Shown: positions 26,989 to 62,983, counted from the first letter of the whole stretch. The stretch is 62,983 nucleotides of DNA, filler included, from Collodictyon triciliatum (GCA_043381765.1; 14 parts of 14 records of this genome joined end to end with filler, not necessarily neighbours in it); one strand, 5' to 3'. Program-made: numbers and translations. The notes: generated from the letters alone by a model not told the origin.

Positions 26989-29900
26989 TTAATCCAACAA
27001 CGGGTCAGATAATCGTTTTCCATTCTTCAGATTTTTCATCTTGACCAATTTTTGCTTGATTTTGCCACTTTTGAATAGAGGAATCACAATAGCGATTGAC
27101 GCAAAATAAAGCAGCCATATTGAGTTCATTCCAATAAGCAGAGCTGTAATCCACGATTGCGAGTCAAACAGAGTCGACATGAGCGAAAGGAAGAAGGACA
27201 AAAAAATAATGTAGAGGCTGGACACCTCCATTTGATTTTCGATTTTCGAGTTGTAAGGCTTATACTCTTTTTGCATCCAAATTGAGCTCTAATAGTTTGT
27301 GCTTGATTTAATATTTAATGCTCAAAAAATTATCTGATATTACGTCATATAAATAAATATTTAATCAACCTGAATAACGATGATGAGAAGCACGAAGAAA
27401 ACCGCTGGGCTTGTGTATGGAATGTCACTGAGCACAAACGAAAAAGCGATGCGGCGTGCGATTATGACAAACTCCCAATACTTGAAGGTCTAAATAATGT
27501 TATTCTCATAAATAATTCCCAATTGATAATGCAAAAAGAAGAAAATTGAATTCAGTACCTCTTTGTATGGCAAGTATAGGAATCCATATCGCGCTCCTGG
27601 TTCGTATCCAGGTCTTTCTGCCATGATTTTCACTTTCCACAATACAAAAGCAGGCAGACCGACCAAGAAAAGAACGAAAACTGGGACAGATATTGCAAGC
27701 AGGTTTTGATATTCATCCAAAGCTGGTCTGCATTGAATCCAGGGCTTGAAATTCAAATACCATTTATTCACACCTTTGTCATAAACAGTGCATCCAAAAA
27801 CACCAAACACCTCTCTTGCAACTGAGTAGTATATAAAAAATAGAAGATTCAAGGTGATGAAAACAGCCTGCCAAAATATTTTTTTTAGTTTTGGTAGTAG
27901 TTGAAGCTGAAACTAATATAAAGATTTTACAATTGAATTTATTTTTTCATCCTTACTTTGTTCTGCTTGTGTCCATGTCCAAAATAGTACGTGACTGAGC
28001 CAATAACGATAAAGATTGGCATTCTTGCAAAACTGAACATCAGAGAAGCAAACACATCGTCTACTCCAAGGACACAGGAAAGGTTGGGAAATTGGATTGA
28101 GCCAATCGACGATGAAACATCGATGAAGCTATTTGAATCTTCTGAAAGAACAAGTCCACCAGAAACAATCGACAGTGTTTGCATGTGTAACATGACTATC
28201 CTGAGTTTCGCTACATAAATATTCTGATTAATATAATAAGAATCAAGTGAAATAACTTAATAACATTTACCTGATTTTGATGTCTCTGTGAAATACAGAT
28301 AGCAAACGAACATAAAAAATCCAATCGAACCAATAATCAGAGTTGAATAAATTGTTCCTTTATCGCATTTCACACACGACCTCCCTTGATTTCCGTATCC
28401 ATTCTGACATTTTGAGCAGGCATTACCTTCATAACCCTCTTGACACAGGTCTATGATTTCGACCGTCACACTTGAATTCGAATTTTTCTCTGGAATCGAC
28501 ACATCACATGACTCGCGACGTGGACATGGTAGTATTGATTTCACAGAGGTAATGCTTGGTGAAGCATGACAGAATTTCAAGGACGTTCCATCAAGGCAAT
28601 CACATCCTCTTGGGCATTGAGCGCAATTATTTCCAAAACCCAAAATAACCAGGCAAACATTTACAAAATTCAAAGTCATAGTATTCTGGATTGAAGTCAA
28701 CCTCCAACTCAACCAGACCAGATTTCGAAATAATGGAAGGACAAAGGTAGCGTTTCGTTTCATCTTGGAGATTGAAAGATGTTGTGAAATTCATGAAATC
28801 AGGAAGAAAATTAGCTGTTCCGTGATTCATCGATGTTTCATTCAATCCCAGATACTCAAGCTTTGAAAATCCGATGTATGATTCAGGGATACTTCCAACA
28901 ATCGGATTTCCAGTGAGGTCAAGGGAAGTCCATCTCAATAGATTTGTGAGTTCATCAAGCTTAGTGATGTTGTTTTTCTTAATACTAAACGTTTTTATGT
29001 TAAGAACATAGTTAAAAAGTCTCCAATTCAGTTCCCCATAGAGTTGGTTGTCATCAAGCAAAAGGTTTTCATAAAAGTAATCGTAATTTTCTGAAGCTGG
29101 AACAATGAAAACACCAACGTCTCCTGAAAATGAGTTGTTTCTCAAATCAATCGTCACTAGATTCGGCAGATTCCAGAATAAATCAGGCATGCTTCCAGAG
29201 AATTTATTATGGGATAAAACAAGTGATTTCAGCTCTAGTAATTCCTGAAAATAGGTTGGAACTGTGCCGTTCATTTTGTTCCAAGACAAGTCGATGTATT
29301 TAATTGAAGGCAATATCCAATTTTCTGGGATAGAGCCACTGATTTGGTTTTCGCTCACATCCAGTCTTGTCAGATTCTTCAGATTGAACATCGGTAATTT
29401 GCTTGACAACTTATTTCGGAATAGTACTATTTCCTTGATGTTTTTGCAATATTTGAAATCTGGAATCTCTCCCTCCAAGTGATTCTCATAAACAGAAAAA
29501 ATCTCCAGTTTACGCATATTTGAGGAGTTTGGGATTGTGCCTAAAATTACTCATTAATGTTTGAGGAAATATGAAAATCAAAAGAAATAGAAAGGGAAAA
29601 TAAGTAGAAATCACCATTCAATCTGTTTCTGTCAAGATAAATTCCTAAAGCATTTGGAATTCCACTGAAGTTTGGAACCGTTCCTGTAATATAAAGTTAG
29701 TTTTGTATCAATGACAAATGAAATAATGATTAAAACTTACCATTGAATTGGTTGTTGCCAATAGAAATCCCTAAAACATTTGGAATTCCACTGAAGTTTG
29801 GAACTGTTCCTGTTATATAAAGTTAGTTTTGTATCAATAATACATGAAAATTACTATAAAAACATACCAATCAATTGGTTGCTGGAAAGAGAAATTATAT

Positions 29901-33591: not shown

Positions 33592-34182
33592 TCATGCTTG
33601 GAAACTCGACTCCATTTGGGAGGAAGACGCTTGCGCATGGTTGTTGGATTCTGCTGATGTGGGATGTGGGAATGAAGTGATGGTCGGGACTCTGAGGTTC
33701 TGTGTGAAAGCCTGGAACTGTTGCTGATGCATCCGGAACTCGTCCTCTGTGACAAAGAGTGTGTGCTCCATCATCTCCAGGAAGGCCACTTCCAGCCGGT
33801 TGATGTGTTGCAGAGAAAGCAGGCTGAGTTGGCGGAAGGAGTCATTGTCAAAGGGCGGCTCTTGAAGAAACTTGCAGGCGGCCATGGACGAGACGACAAA
33901 GACTTTGGGCAGGTTGGAGAATGTGACAGGGTAGCCTTTCTGCATCAGCCGGCAGATGTAGACGATGGCGAGAACCAGGTCTGTTTCCCCAGCCACTTTG
34001 AACTTCTCCAGCTCGCTGATGAATGTGGCGACGGCTCGGCAGTTTTCGGAGGCGTAGAACTGGTTGAATGGCTGGATTCTCTCGTGCAGAGTTGCGTCGT
34101 CTGTTTGTGCGGTGGGCTGCTGCGTCTGGTGGGCGACAATCCGGGAAATGTAGAGCGATACGGCGCGGGATAATGAAGTCAT
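33592..34182 (-). CDS. PHO80/P-type (cyclin-U-like) cyclin, intronless
   Basis: LAIVYICRL..PVTFSNLPKVFVVSSMAACKF..FDNDSF..INRLEVAFL..LFV. Confidence 0.85.
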   Translation of the reverse strand: MTSLSRAVSLYISRIVAHQTQQPTAQTDDATLHERIQPFNQFYASENCRAVATFISELEKFKVAGETDLVLAIVYICRLMQKGYPVTFSNLPKVFVVSSMAACKFLQEPPFDNDSFRQLSLLSLQHINRLEVAFLEMMEHTLFVTEDEFRMHQQQFQAFTQNLRVPTITSFPHPTSAESNNHAQASSSQMESSFQA

Positions 34183-35481
34183 CTTGTTTGTGTTTGTGTT
34201 GGTTCTTTGTTCTTTGTTCTTTGTTCTTTGTTCTTGGTTCTTGGTTCTTGTTCGCTGCTTTGGTGATTTGGTGATTTGGTGGTGCCCAAGTGAAAGTCAG
34301 ATGTACCAAAACCGAGGCCCAATTAAATATGGGTGTTTTGTAGGAACGAGCAGGGAGGATTTCGGCGAGCTAGTGATGAATTTTATGGAATGGGCTAGGA
34401 GGAAAGGGGCGTAGTATGCAGTTCAGCTTATTTTGTATATTACTATTTTAGTGTATAAATTTCTATATTTCAATCATTAGTATTTGAATTATATAATAAT
34501 TATAATTATATATTATAATATCCAGAATTAGATGTTAGGTATAATTAGTACGAAAAATCATAGAATAGTTACTGCATACCTATTCTGGTTGAAAAGCGCA
34601 AACGACTCTGATTCAAAAGATACCGCTGCGTGTCATGCGCAAAGGCTGCCCTGTTGTTATCATGTATTATCATGATGATGGCATCATCTGACTGCGTGAT
34701 GACCTTTTGTCACACCAAGCACTTGCTCAACTTCTGGGCAACGGGTTCAGCTATGGTTCTGCATTGTCGAAACGAAGGCATTTGTGTGCGATTGCTTGAA
34801 ATGCTATCTTTGTGGATTCTGCGTTGATGCAGAAGGACACTAAATCAGAAGAATCTTCCTAATCGAAGATTGAGGGGGTCGGATGCTATGGCATACCATG
34901 ATTGCATGAGAGTGTGTACTGTTTTTATTCTTTTCTATTATATTTATGTGTTGATTACTCCTGGAGACAAGAAGTCAGTAATCCTTGAGGAGTTCGGCAA
35001 AAGCCTTCATTAAGAAGCTCTGCTACTTATCTCGTCGGTTTGGTGGTGATTATCCTCTCGTTTACCTTGCCGACTCGGCATCCTTCAACCATTATGTGCG
35101 GAAGTTAGAGAAAAAAGAAAAAAGAAGAAAGAAGAAAGAAGAAAGAAGAAAGAAGAAAGAAGAAAGAAGAAAGAAGAAAGAAGAAAGAAGAAAGAAGAAA
35201 GAAGAAAGAAGAAAAGAAAAAANNNNNNNNNNNNNNNNNNNNNNNNNNNNNNNNNNNNNNNNNNNNTTAATTAATTAANNNNNNNNNNNNNNNNNNNNNN
35301 NNNNNNNNNNNNNNNNNNNNNNAATATTAATTTTTGTTTTTTATTTTGTAAAATATAAAAGTGACCGCCTTTTTGTTTTTTTTTTTTTTTTTAAAAAAAA
35401 AAGGCAGATAATACAAAAAGGTGGAAGAGAAGAAAAGAGTTGAAGAGGAAAAAATGCTTATGCTTGTCAAATGAAACTCAC

Positions 35482-38421
<2,940 letters not shown>

Positions 38422-53400: not shown

Positions 53401-58512
<5,112 letters not shown>

Positions 58513-58679
58513 GCTATTGTGCACACATAGGATTAGCTGAGAGTATAAGCCCACACACAGACACTCAGACACACAAAAANNNNNNNNNNNNNNNNNNNNN
58601 NNNNNNNNNNNNNNNNNNNNNNNTTAATTAATTAANNNNNNNNNNNNNNNNNNNNNNNNNNNNNNNNNNNNNNNNNNNN

Positions 58680-61600
58680 AGTTGACCGAGGGCGAAATTA
58701 AGGATGGTGTCGAATCCTTCCTCATCCGCTATGACAAGACCCTGAACGAAAAGCAAGTTGGAATGATTCTGGCTGACCTGGAAGATACTGGTGAGGCATT
58801 TTTAATAGGAGTATATATATTTTAATAAAAAAAAATTCCAAGGAATGATTAGTTATTCTTATGTGATATTTTTTATAGGCCATCCGCTCTATCTCCGCAT
58901 CATTCTGGACGAAGTCAGGGTCTTTGGCGTCTATGAGAAGCTTGATGAAGAACTGAATACTCTGCTCTCAACCAACGGTGTCATTGAGCTTTACACTCTC
59001 ATTATCAAACGCTGGCAACTGAAGTTTGACAGGAAAGGTGAGTATTGGTTTCATATTTCACAAAAAAAAAAAAATGCAAATTATAACAGCAATTTTTGTT
59101 GAATACTTTTTTTAATTGTAAAGTCTCCTCTTCTGATGGAAAAGAGACAATGAAGGTCGAGTATGTCTCCCTCTCGATGAAGGTTCTCTTTGTTTCTCGC
59201 ATCGGCCTGAGTGAAGGTGACCTGGACAAGTACATGAAAGACGCGATTGGCACAGGATTCGAGCTTGCCGAATGGTTTACTTACTATTGAATTTTAACAG
59301 AATTAATAGGTTAACCCTTTCCATTTTCTTTTTTATTTAACTTATCTTTTATCCATTCAAATAGGAAATCCTTTTTCTTTACCCTCATCGAGTCGCTTTT
59401 CGTCCGCAATGGAAGGTTGGTGTTATTTCTCAGTTCTTTTCTTTCGTTAATATGTGTTTTTGGTATTATTTTATTTGGATATAAAGCTAACTATTGTCTA
59501 TCATAGATACATGTACTTCCATCAGCTGTTGTTGGAGACCACTGAAAAGGTATACTTCTCTGAAGTGAAAGAGATGGAAAAAACCCACGAAAAATACGGA
59601 AAATGGCTGTTTGGCCAGTATTCTGAGGCTGCTGACGCGGATGAGGAGCTTGCTGCTGAGATATGCTACCAACTTCTGAAGGGCAGTTCATTTGACTTGC
59701 TTGTCGAATACATGAAGCAAAAACATGTAATTTCTTTATTTTTATTTAATTGTTTTCACTCATAATGAAATGTCATTCACTCATTAATTTTTTAAAATAT
59801 CTCATAGGTTATTAGCATCATGCTCAGTGGTCGCTATCGCTACGAGTTCTTTACATGCTGGAGAGCAATCAACGCAAGCGGAGCGGCGAACTACAAGGAT
59901 GCTTATGGAAGCTTGGCTAAGGTAATTTTATTAATAATTTTATTTTTTGAAGGTTACCACTCACGAATTAAATTATTAATCATGATTTATCTATTTTTTT
60001 TTTTATTTTTTTTCAGTCTTTGGATAATGTGGGAGACCTGCTGGTTGGATTTTTCTTGGAGTCTTTTGAGAACTCGTTCTTGTTATCTGTTCTGAATGTG
60101 CGTCTTGGAAAGCATCAGACAGAAGGTATGCAATTTATTGTTATTTTTTGATGAATTTAAGTCACGAATATGAGTGTATATATATGGAGATATTCAATAA
60201 TCTATTAATTCATAGATGCGAAGTCGGCTGATTACTTAAGTCTTGGTCGTGTCTACAAGAACGTCCAAAAGTAAAAAAAAGAAAAAAAAAGCAATGATTA
60301 TATAATTAAGACATGAAATTATGATTATTTATAATGGCAACTTTTCTAAAATAAAATAAAAATTAAACAGCTGGTCTGAGTCCATGGTCTGCTACAAGAA
60401 ATGTCTCGACTCCGTTGAGAAAAATGCAGATGATTCCCTGCGTATCGCTACCATCCATGAAGAGATGGGTATCATTTACCAGCAACAGGATAAGTAAGGC
60501 TCGTTTTCAACTGTAAAATAAATTATGAATAATGTTTCAAAAAAGGAATTATTCTGATTTTTCTTATGAAACAGAATCGATGAAGCTCTTGGTGAATACA
60601 AGATATCACTGGAATTGAGAATCAAACAGCTGGGCGAGAACGACTTGCAAGTGGCCCAATCATATGACCGCTTTGGAGATATCTATGTGAAGCAGTCAAA
60701 GTAATAATTGATTCATCTATATTCGTTTTTTTTTTTTTGCATTTATTTTGTAAATATATAAGTATGCTGATCAATTTTTTATGATAGGAATGAGCAAGCT
60801 CTGGTTGAATACACAAATGCCATGGAAATCCGCCAAAAGAAAGTCGGAAACGAGCATCCTCTTGTCGCAACATCGTACCAGAACTACGGCCATGTCTCTC
60901 TGGCTGGGAAAAAGTAGCACAGTCATTCGATTAAAGCTTATTTTAATCTACTTATAATTTGAGAAATATTAATATGATTGAATCATCAAGGTATGAAGAG
61001 TCTATTAAAAACTACGAAGAGGCTAAATCAATTCTTGAAAAATCGCTGGGAGCGAAGCATGCATCTGTTGCCTCGACAATCCAGTTTATTGCGAGTGTTC
61101 ATCTTGCCAGTGGAAAGTTCGGATTTCTAAATTACAGATATTTTCATAAAACAATAATAATTTTCTATTTCTTTTAATTTGCAAAATGAGTTTAGCTTCA
61201 TATATTCATTGTATGGACTCTATTTGTGGTTAAGATTATGCATCATATAATTCTAATTAATTATATAAATATCAAAACTATTATCTTTTATAGGAAAAGT
61301 GAGGCCTTGTCCTCATTAAAGCAATCGCTTGATATTTTCATGTCTGCTCTGGGTGAAAATCATCCGAATGTTGTGGCCTGCTATGAAATGATTGGAGACA
61401 TCAGCCATGATTTGAAGGAGTATCTCTTTAAGAATTATATTTTTATATTTGATTGAAAGGAATAATTTATTTACTCACATTATCCTAGCTTCAAGGGTGC
61501 TTTGGAGGCGTATACAAAGACGCTGGATATTCGCGTGAGAACATTGGGCGAAAGGCATGCAGATTATGCGACTTCCCTGGAGAATATTGGCAGAACAAAC

Positions 61601-62983
61601 TTTGAGCTTCAAAGGTAAATTTCTCTATTTGTTAAAAAAAATTAAATATTATATTAATACTTGTAAAAACCATGAATAAATATAATATACATGCATTTAG
61701 ATTGGACCAAGTCGTGGAATACTTCCAGAAGGCAGCTGCTATCAGAAAGGAGACGAAGACTATCATATCACTGAAAGACGGCCCGCAAATTGACAACATT
61801 ATCCGCCTCATGAAGGACAAGAAGGAGCATGAAGCCGTTGTTCAGCTTTACAAAACAGCTGCTGTTATACATGGTGAAAAGTCATCCTATGAAAACTGGG
61901 ACTGCTGGGTGGCTTGTGAGACTGCACACCAACACTGCAAAGAAAATAAGCAGCATAACGAAGCAGTGGCATTCTGGACTGAGATGAGAGACAGATTCGC
62001 TGATAAAGTCGGATGGATTCACCCCAGAACGTTAAACTCGTGCGAATACTTGTCCGTTCATTCAAAAGAAATCGGAATCAACAAAGAGCCTGTCGAGTTT
62101 ACAAGAGTCAAGGAATTCATCAGTGAAACTCTTGATGATGCAAAACTGGATGAGAAATGGAATCGTGAGCAAATCATTGCATCATTATTCAGAATTGTCT
62201 ACATGTCAACGACTGATGAGAGCAAATCAAAGGCTGCGTCTAATGCAATCACACTTTTGAATTTCATGAATATTTCATTTGGTGGAATGGATTTATCAAA
62301 CATCAATATTCCACATGCAAATCTCAGTAACTCAATCTTTGAAGGTGCAAACCTCACTGGTGCCGACTTGGATGGTGTTGATTTCACGAATTCGATGCTT
62401 GGTGATTGTGTTTTTGATAATGCGAATATGAATAATGTTAAATTCGGAATTCCTCATTATAAATTAGAAGGTCATACAAGTTATGTCAATAGTGTTTGCA
62501 GTATCCAAGGACCGAATGGTCAAAACTGGCTGGCTTCTGGAAGTCTTGACAAAACAATACGTATTTGGGATGTAGCCACAGGAAACCAAATCAAAATATT
62601 CGAAGGTCACACAAATGATGTCAGGAGTGTTTGCAGTATCCAAGGACCGAACGGTGAAAATTGGTTGGCTTCTGGGAGTTATGATAAAACAATACGTATT
62701 TGGGATGTAGCCACAGGAAACCAAATCAAAACATTAGAAGGTCATACATATGCTGTCACTAGTGTTTGCAGTATTCAAGGACCAAATGGTAAAAATTGGT
62801 TGGCTTCTGGAGGTAAAGATAATACAGTACGTATTTGGGATGTAGCCACAGGAAATCAAATCAATACATTAAAAGGACATACAAATGATATCAACAGTGT
62901 TTGCAGTATTCAAGGACCGAATGGTGAAAAGTGGCTGGCTTCTGGAAGTTTTGATAATACAATACGTATTTGGGATGTAGCCA
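58680..62983 (+). CDS. NPHP3/TEP1-like STAND C-terminal region plus TPR array, pentapeptide repeats and WD40 repeats; both ends truncated
   Basis: YDKTLNEKQV..GHPLYLRIILDEVRVFGVYEKL; 42-aa KLC-type TPR exons; last exon open from 61701 to the window end with AASNAITLLN..DLSNINIPHANLSN and GHT..WLASGS.DKTIRIWD repeats. Confidence 0.88.
62464..62983 (+). repeat. Near-identical 135-nt (45-aa) WD40 tandem repeats, at least 4 copies
   Basis: Units start at 62464, 62599, 62734 and 62869. Confidence 0.95.

Follow-up and report, generated by a model that had tools for sequence, protein, structure and literature searches.

Positions 58680–62983 of the window (the whole stretch of DNA analyzed, 62,983 nucleotides long) carry, on the plus strand, a fragment of a gene for a STAND (NLR-like) protein in which a TPR array is followed by pentapeptide repeats and WD40 units. 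The window is a chain of contigs of about 4.3 kb joined by 13 linkers of the form N44-TTAATTAATTAA-N44 at a spacing of about 4.4 kb, and therefore the neighbors of the TPR/WD40 gene in the window are not its physical neighbors. The gene lies in a single 4304-bp contig and continues beyond both contig ends; the contig start is marked by the linker at 58580..58679 (no strand), at which the gene is cut. GC content is about 35% across the window (eukaryotic) and 20% in the introns of this gene. In tblastn searches of the whole window with the spliced gene model and with P0089, a protein of Diphylleia rotans described below, all nine segments matched by the model were in this contig, and no other contig was matched.

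The Gene Model

The rebuilt gene model has 15 exons, all with GT-AG borders, and 14 introns of 69–177 bp, and its joined frame runs through 1001 codons with 0 stops. Read from its 5' end, it encodes the last part of a STAND NTPase arm, then six TPR units of one exon each, a linker made of helices, a helix ending in AASNAITLLN, a pentapeptide β-helix and 3.8 WD40 units. Exons 1–8 (58682..60270) specify the C-terminal, helical/winged-helix arm of the STAND NTPase, as indicated by GT-AG borders, an open frame and colinearity with P0089 from residue 810 (exon 1, 58682–58790; exon 2, 58879–59037; exon 3, 59124–59274; exon 4, 59365–59415; exon 5, 59507–59726; exon 6, 59808–59921; exon 7, 60017–60125; exon 8, 60216–60270). 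Exons 9–14 (60371..61614) specify the TPR units, as judged from phases, lengths and TPR_12 matches (exon 9, 60371–60493; exon 10, 60575–60700; exon 11, 60788–60913; exon 12, 60991–61116; exon 13, 61294–61419; exon 14, 61489–61614). The last intron (61615..61700; 86 bp, GT..AG) splits an AGA codon after AG.

As the original prediction stated, the frame of the last exon stays open from 61701/61702 to the window end, through 427 codons. The exon begins with the end of the final TPR unit and a helical, TPR-like linker (61701..62130; structure model, HMMER and third-position composition), and continues into the start of a module shared with other proteins, which consists of two helices ending in AASNAITLLN (62131..62265, with the motif at 62236–62265; homology alignments and structure model). 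About 12 pentapeptide repeats forming a β-helix follow (62266..62451; Pfam PF00805 and structure model), and then four WD40 units of 45 residues each, which start at 62470, 62605, 62740 and 62875 (62470..62982), the fourth being cut by the contig end.

Domains and Predicted Structure

Pfam scans were made of the last-exon translation and of the upstream exons as single pieces (13 pieces; exons 4 and 8, which are too short, were left out). In the last exon, WD40 (PF00400) scored 146.1 bits in four stretches (cut-off, 27), and Pentapeptide (PF00805) scored 41.5 bits at residues 187–225 (cut-off, 20.2). Five of the six TPR exons matched TPR_12 when scanned singly (E-values of 4e-4 to 2e-6; 20.9–28.1 bits), and the scores fall below the cut-off of 30.1 because each piece is one TPR unit of 41 residues only. 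The sixth TPR exon and the six scanned pieces from exons 1–8 had no match to any Pfam family, and the linker piece gave only weak matches (E-value of 0.04 or worse). Exons 9–14 are each 123 or 126 bp long, all start in phase 2 and encode one 42-residue TPR unit apiece, with a mean identity between units of 22%; this one-exon-per-unit pattern is the signature of array growth through exon duplication.

The last exon was modeled with AlphaFold2 from a 20-row alignment (mean predicted local distance difference test score [pLDDT] 90.6; predicted template modeling score 0.64), and the model has a helical solenoid over residues 2–188. Its linker helices (2–18, 27–39, 43–60, 66–81, 85–103, 108–123 and 130–144; pLDDT 83–96 from residue 31) are followed by the two helices of the module start (155–168 and 173–188), the last of which carries AASNAITLLN. 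Single-residue strands then recur every five positions over residues 197–247 of the pentapeptide part, whose β-helix extends to about residue 250 (pLDDT 92–97), and beyond it are four-stranded WD40 blades (pLDDT about 90–98). A search of the ESM Atlas with the linker gave a top score of 0.83, to TPR clusters, which is below the reliability level and serves as a lead only.

Relatives in Diphylleia rotans

A HMMER search of 1.84 billion representative proteins gave 326,510 matches, and among the best 150, which were examined, only three extended over the complete last exon, so that the linker was found in this family alone. These are P0089, P0091 and P0184, all Trinity transcript proteins of the freshwater flagellate D. 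rotans (EukProt EP00002). These proteins have the same order as the contig gene (STAND arm, TPR, helical linker, pentapeptide repeats and 45-residue WD40 units). The spliced model aligned with P0089 in one high-scoring segment pair (residues 1–1001 to 810–1800; 49.4% identity), and it is 47% identical to P0184 and 30% identical to P0091. P0239 is a near-identical cluster mate of P0089.

P0089 is a 2619-residue protein composed of a CH domain (residues 191–277; 42.8 bits in Pfam), a DUF4062 domain (residues 379–470; 42 bits against a cut-off of 24.7), a P-loop NTPase, TPR units (TPR_12, 142 bits, in the stretch colinear with the TPR exons of the contig), pentapeptide repeats (residues 1560–1621; 34 bits) and 19 WD40 units with a 45-residue period. 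Its P-loop region (618–845) scored slightly below the cut-offs of three NTPase families (nSTAND1, 26.1 against 27.1; NACHT, 24.4 against 26.7; NPHP3_N, 22.3 against 24.8). About 890 residues separate the P-loop from the module motif, which is degenerate in this protein. The first exon of the contig matches P0089 at residue 810, where the NTPase region is almost over, in agreement with the expectation that the NTPase motifs lie off the contig; likewise, the spliced model, the Pfam matches and the colinearity with D. rotans bear out the view that the gene encodes an NPHP3-type STAND/TPR protein whose frame runs on through pentapeptide and WD40 repeats.

The order TPR, pentapeptide, WD40 was not found outside the contig and D. 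rotans in a limited sample of 358 fetched proteins. A hidden Markov model of the TPR unit run over the same proteins found at least two units only in P0089, P0239 and P0184; it missed P0091 and other TPR types, and is no measure of rarity. A word-index search of longer proteins with residues 1–250 of the last exon gave 87 matches, all via the pentapeptide part, and with residues 1–175 it gave none among 229 candidates; this search missed P0184 and says little on the rarity of the linker. When P0089 was used in a PDB sequence search, the best 60 of 599 matches were all WD40 proteins, with none for the NTPase or the linker.

Transcription Across the TPR–Pentapeptide Join

RNA contigs that are 88–99+% alike to the genomic contig were found in three runs (397 in X1, 449 in X2 and 149 in X18). 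X18 is a freshwater metatranscriptome; X1 and X2 are small runs whose RNA label was a guess, but spliced joints are present in their contigs and would be expected from RNA alone. Contigs of X1, X2 and X18 contain GT..AG joints for nine introns (59274/59365, 59415/59507, 59726/59808, 60125/60216, 60270/60371, 60700/60788, 60913/60991, 61116/61294 and 61419/61489), and at the last intron loose contig ends at 61614 and 61699 read into the exon on the other side in each of the three runs. Short RNA contigs tile 61702–62513 of the last exon, and four of them span the module boundary (62050–62207, 62082–62237, 62102–62252 and 62116–62259). It is therefore very unlikely that the TPR part was wrongly joined to the pentapeptide part in assembly, one of the doubts attached to the original prediction, as RNA contigs cross the boundary with the last intron bridged, and the model is colinear with a D. 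rotans transcript protein over 1001 residues.

In X1 and X2, the depth of RNA contigs is 440–2350 over the WD40 units (62424–62983) compared with about 10–170 over most of the gene, and thus very many similar WD40 units are transcribed in these samples. A DNA metagenome (X4) was considered as evidence of organism or habitat and set aside: 10 of its contigs match, nine of them in part only, and of the eight pieces listed seven are low-complexity matches of 22–35 bases and one is a 266-base piece at about 91%, so that it bears on neither. The shares of sampled words, 0.05–0.13 in every run that contains any, are likewise no ground for naming a habitat or strain.

Carriers and Origin of the Pentapeptide–WD40 Module

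The AASNAITLLN motif was present in 15 of 243 proteins examined, and with the pentapeptide and WD40 repeats that come after it forms a recurrent module. In seven of them (P0038, P0078, P0090, P0096, P0135, P0142 and P0193) a Walker A motif lies 393–439 residues upstream, which accords with the original view that the module normally stands directly after NACHT. P0090, also from D. rotans, is such a protein: its NACHT match scores 34.6 bits (cut-off, 26.7) and its Pentapeptide match 50 bits, and no TPR family is among its Pfam matches. The other motif carriers do not show that Walker A spacing: they are the contig translation, three P0038 cluster mates, two proteins that have no P-loop at the N terminus, and the pair P0093/P0240, whose motif lies much further downstream. 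Module carriers occur in a Legionellaceae metagenome-assembled genome (MAG), Glomeribacter, Mycoavidus, cyanobacteria, myxobacteria, Mortierellaceae fungi and the foraminifer Reticulomyxa filosa.

Alignments of the NACHT-type proteins start at residues 144–162 of the last exon (window 62131–62187), and this homology boundary coincides with a drop in GC content at third codon positions (GC3). GC3 is 0.53 upstream of 62150 (380/723 codons) and 0.28 in the module (78/278 codons; Fisher p = 1.7e-12), and the linker (61701..62130), at 0.49, is like the upstream exons. At four-fold sites, 142/283 are G or C upstream of 62150 compared with 22/109 in the module. In the last WD40 units GC3 goes down to 0.15–0.25.

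A maximum-likelihood tree of the module was built from 30 rows (the contig and 29 of 31 module-covering proteins, two near-duplicates being dropped). One clade, with support of 100/99, unites the contig with P0089, P0184 and P0091, the TPR-type proteins of D. rotans, and its sister is the NACHT-type D. rotans protein P0090 with support of 94/94, just under the level starred by the tool. A WD period of 45 residues is found in all five D. rotans proteins with at least five WD cores (P0089, P0239, P0184, P0091 and P0090); among 261 proteins with at least five WD cores, the period is 42 residues in 224 and 45 in 11. The 45-residue period was rejected as a unique lineage marker, because six of the 11 carriers are from outside D. 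rotans, three of these six being actinobacterial.

The simplest reading of these sequence comparisons is that the TPR lineage obtained the module in an old domain shuffle involving two STAND lineages of one organism group, with expansion of the family coming later. The homology boundary, the shift in GC3 and the tree all support shuffling, and a recent event is not supported, because paralogues at only 30–49% identity share the join. The original prediction of a sensor module grafted onto a TPR gene thus stands as to the joining of the parts and is weakened as to its details: the fusion is shared with three D. rotans paralogues, and it is not at an intron, as the intron-free last exon begins about 430–480 bp upstream of the module boundary. 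This exon measures 1282 bp; with one intron per 123 nt upstream, it would be free of introns with a Poisson probability of 3e-5.

NACHT–pentapeptide–WD40 proteins are also present in Mortierellaceae fungi (P0135, P0142, P0193, P0357 and P0358) and in Glomeribacter/Mycoavidus (P0252, P0329 and P0336), and one 10-row group of the module tree (support, 91/93) takes in both the fungal rows and those of Mycoavidus. Mycoavidus and Glomeribacter are endosymbionts of such fungi, and the grouping hints at transfer between host and endosymbiont.

Variation Among the WD40 Units

Tandem Repeats Finder reports 3.9 copies of a 135-bp period with 87% matches at 62463–62983. In the 36 codons that all four WD40 units share, DNA identity is 84–90%, protein identity is 75–86% (mean, 81%) and the synonymous rate (dS) is 0.20–0.33. 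The variable stretches quoted in the original prediction are exact; its term "near-identical" is too strong for these values, which are nevertheless high for WD40. Mean identity between units within a protein is 45% in P0089, 47% in P0184 and 37% in P0090, and the contrast with the contig gene may be exaggerated, because transcript assemblers may under-represent very similar repeats.

Ten of the 36 columns vary in protein sequence (4, 5, 6, 7, 18, 19, 25, 26, 28 and 30), and eight other codons show synonymous change only. The pairs that flank a conserved V (5 and 7) and a conserved D (26 and 28) vary at all four positions, with two to four residues each; the hypergeometric probability that all four would be among the 10 variable columns is p = 0.0036. 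In 26 units of P0089 and P0184, the six most variable columns include 5, 26, 4 and 7. In HET-E, the same two pairs (codons 7/9 and 25/27, each around a conserved codon), which are on the top face of the propeller, are described as being under positive selection by Paoletti et al. (PMC1805685). The claim of HET-E-type hypervariable sites is upheld to the extent that all four surface positions are among the variable columns, and this pattern fits the idea of HET-E-like diversification. No overall excess of non-synonymous change between units was found: the overall ratio of non-synonymous to synonymous rates (dN/dS) is 0.22–0.67, with no pair above 1, and 3.8 units are too few for a codon-level test.

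Proposed Mechanism and Function

We consider it likely that the region represents part of a real and transcribed member of a lineage-specific STAND (NLR-like) gene family, having a P0089-like architecture and an old module shuffle, in a freshwater protist whose nearest recorded relatives are collodictyonids (D. rotans). A switch mechanism can be proposed for it by analogy. The C-terminal repeats would hold the NTPase off, as in APAF-1-type STAND proteins, and a ligand bound in the TPR groove, on the top face of the WD40 propeller or at both sites would release it. Nucleotide exchange and oligomerization would then bring the N-terminal DUF4062 domains together as effector, probably with NAD+ hydrolysis by DUF4062 as the effector step. 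The rigid pentapeptide β-helix may be the spacer between two sensor arms, TPR and WD40. The WD40 units of the contig gene may be kept alike through recent duplication or gene conversion, with variation at the ligand-facing positions, and the ancestor of the family may have gained its module by shuffling from, or with, the NACHT–pentapeptide–WD40 lineage of the same organism group.

DUF4062 is described as a TIR-like NADase that acts as effector in bacterial anti-phage systems, and as the N-terminal domain of numerous NLR-like proteins of eukaryotes, such as NPHP3, NWD1/2 and TEP1, in two preprints (bioRxiv 10.64898/2026.05.01.722283; 10.64898/2026.09.04.749371); in the second of these (the NIR preprint), most eukaryotic DUF4062 proteins are given as NLR-like. 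The effector step is uncertain, because human NPHP3, NWD1 and NWD2 were negative in the NADase assay, TEP1 alone being active, according to the first preprint (bioRxiv 10.64898/2026.05.01.722283). An immune-like function of the family has roughly even odds, and a role in allorecognition or immunity is an analogy. It is possible, though on the unlikely side, that a deep-branching, collodictyonid-like freshwater CRuMs lineage has independently evolved its own diversifying intracellular receptor repertoire, a large expressed family of NADase-armed STAND proteins, with TPR and WD40 arms in series, a β-helix spacer, gene conversion and diversification at the same four top-face sites as in HET-E, convergent with fungal, plant and animal immunity.

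Alternative Explanations

Several observations weigh against the reading of the region as a transcribed receptor gene of this kind, and some of them favor other explanations. A scaffold of the cilium or cytoskeleton would be compatible with the presence of a CH domain and with the relationship to NPHP3, and in the main rival reading, which is conceivable if unlikely, the protein is a constitutive signaling scaffold like nephrocystin-3, with its repeats serving as assembly platforms and not as diversifying sensors. This is consistent with the CH domain at the start of P0089, the weak TPR_NPHP3 and NPHP3_N matches, the inactivity of human NPHP3, NWD1 and NWD2 in the NADase assay cited above, and the dN/dS below 1 between WD40 units, which counts against the receptor reading as well. 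However, the numbers of RNA contigs in X1, X2 and X18, at 88–99% and with a steep rise in depth over the WD40 units, point to a large and diverse family and not to a single housekeeping gene, the variation between units is concentrated at ligand-facing positions, and eukaryotic DUF4062 proteins are mostly NLR-like in the NIR preprint. The comparison with fungal receptors is itself weakened by the protein identity of 75–86% between units, which is near or below the threshold of >85% at which fungal repeats are termed "highly internally conserved" (PMC4986451).

The sharp fall of GC3 at the module boundary is hard to reconcile with an old fusion, in which a compositional relic of transfer should have faded; exchange with an AT-rich pool of WD40 units, or relaxed codon selection, are guesses at its cause. 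The same fall, the wide occurrence of the module in bacteria (the Legionellaceae MAG, Glomeribacter, Mycoavidus, cyanobacteria and myxobacteria) and the improbably intronless last exon would fit a module that had come recently and straight from an AT-rich bacterium. We regard such a horizontal graft as highly improbable, because the fusion is also present in the three D. rotans paralogues at 30–49% identity, the module clusters in the tree with D. rotans proteins and not with bacteria, the 45-residue unit is common to the contig and P0090 whereas bacterial NACHT-type proteins have a period of 42, and the intron-free stretch opens 430–480 bp ahead of the module. There is likewise scarcely any chance that the gene is a chimeric assembly of TPR and WD40 genes or a fragment of a pseudogene. 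The small size of the contig (4304 bp), its end within a repeat array, and the low share of its sampled words in public runs (0.05–0.13, with none above 13%) would allow it, but the fragment is colinear over 1001 residues with independent transcript assemblies of another organism, RNA contigs bridge both the boundary and the last intron, and the frame and all 14 GT-AG introns are intact. The old shuffle in a transcribed receptor family is therefore preferred, with two further points to its disadvantage: the RNA contigs may stem from paralogues or a related strain, so that a gene of this form is transcribed and the transcription of this copy is unproven; and the contig includes neither the NTPase and DUF4062 domains nor the final part of the WD40 array, so that the full architecture attributed to the gene is borrowed from a relative at 49% identity.

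Other Contigs of the Window

The linkers between contigs start at 4319, 8737, 13154, 17569, 21983, 26396, 30808, 35223, 39632, 44024, 48440, 52847 and 58580, and three of the window pieces contain larger internal N gaps (365–486 bases). An intronless open frame of 1399 codons on the minus strand (22198–26394) fills almost an entire contig and carries 21 Ephrin_rec_like cysteine-rich repeats (465 bits), with weaker, overlapping NCD3G-like and TNFR-like cysteine-rich matches; its appearance is that of a giant repeat protein of the cell exterior, truncated on either side. The contig preceding that of the TPR/WD40 gene has BEACH-domain exons (55990–57862, minus strand; 107 and 81 bits) adjoining long poly(A/T) and (CT)n runs, and an A run of 50 bases is at 58181–58230. 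Also on the minus strand are a reverse-transcriptase fragment (RVT_1; 8840–9384), an LRR protein (28630–29550), a cyclin-like frame (33595–34296) and a ubiquitin hydrolase (UCH) fragment (36711–37541).

Comparison With Known Systems

STAND/NLR-like receptors are thought to have been repeatedly assembled from a shared set of parts. Shuffled STAND parts are thus well known and the module is widespread, and the order TPR, then pentapeptide, then WD40 is an unusual variant. The gene is a clear case of domain assembly in a little-studied branch of eukaryotes, in which a NACHT-associated sensor module stands behind the complete TPR arm of a DUF4062-bearing, nephrocystin-3-type NTPase, with the outcome that three repeat types are placed in series in a family expressed in freshwater samples. 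The family is a system, possibly tractable if cultured, for asking whether DUF4062 NLR-like proteins serve protist immunity, and permits HET-E-style diversification of WD40 blades to be tested outside fungi. If the scaffold function is true, the gene is still an example of exon-per-repeat TPR growth and of shuffling between STAND lineages.

P0089, P0184 and P0091 appear to be undescribed in the literature; EukProt v3 was searched in bioRxiv 10.64898/2026.09.04.749371, and D. rotans proteins may be among those that it lists. The three papers that join NACHT, pentapeptide, WD40 and TPR in full-text searches include, as judged by titles and abstract openings, none on protists or on this architecture, and a full-text literature search gave no paper with both NACHT and Collodictyon. 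Pentapeptide repeats are treated generically, as superstructure-forming domains, in one of them (PMC7159879).

Parts are shared with the class of NACHT–pentapeptide–WD40 proteins (P0090, R. filosa P0287, Legionellaceae MAG P0250 and others), which have the capping helix, with the common motif A-A/S-x-A-I-T-L-L, the pentapeptide repeats and the WD40 units in common with the contig gene. In these proteins the module comes straight after NACHT, 393–439 residues past the Walker A, there is no TPR array, and the WD units are of 42 residues except in P0090; in the contig gene, by contrast, about 570 residues (arm, TPR and linker) precede AASNAITLLN on the contig alone. Human nephrocystin-3 (NPHP3) shares DUF4062, a P-loop NTPase and repeats of TPR_12/TPR_NPHP3 type with P0089 (bioRxiv 10.64898/2026.05.01.722283), but it ends with its TPRs, with no pentapeptide or WD40 repeats, and the NPHP3_N and TPR_NPHP3 scores of the contig gene and its relative are below cut-off. 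NWD1, NWD2 and TEP1 have the DUF4062 position, STAND NTPase and WD40 propellers of the family, and an APAF-1-like mechanism is proposed for them in the same source (10.64898/2026.05.01.722283); they have no TPR array or pentapeptide spacer, and TEP1 has TROVE and vWA domains in addition.

Two repeat types on one STAND protein are not unique, because WD40 and TPR are combined on one STAND NTPase in bacterial nSTAND1–WD40–TPR proteins (P0245 and P0249) as in the contig gene family. There the order is reversed, with WD40 first and TPR at the C terminus, no pentapeptide repeats are listed and the TPRs are of other types. A canonical NLR combines NACHT or NB-ARC with an LRR sensor, and Pfam scans of the gene pieces of the contig and of P0089 gave no LRR family. 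In the HNWD proteins of fungi (HET, NACHT and WD40; HET-E, HET-D and HET-R), as in the contig gene, the WD40 units are unusually alike and vary at the residue pairs flanking V and D. However, HNWD proteins have another effector and another NTPase and no TPR or pentapeptide repeats, and for them positive selection, concerted evolution and the genetics of allorecognition have been demonstrated; the identity between units is lower in the contig gene.

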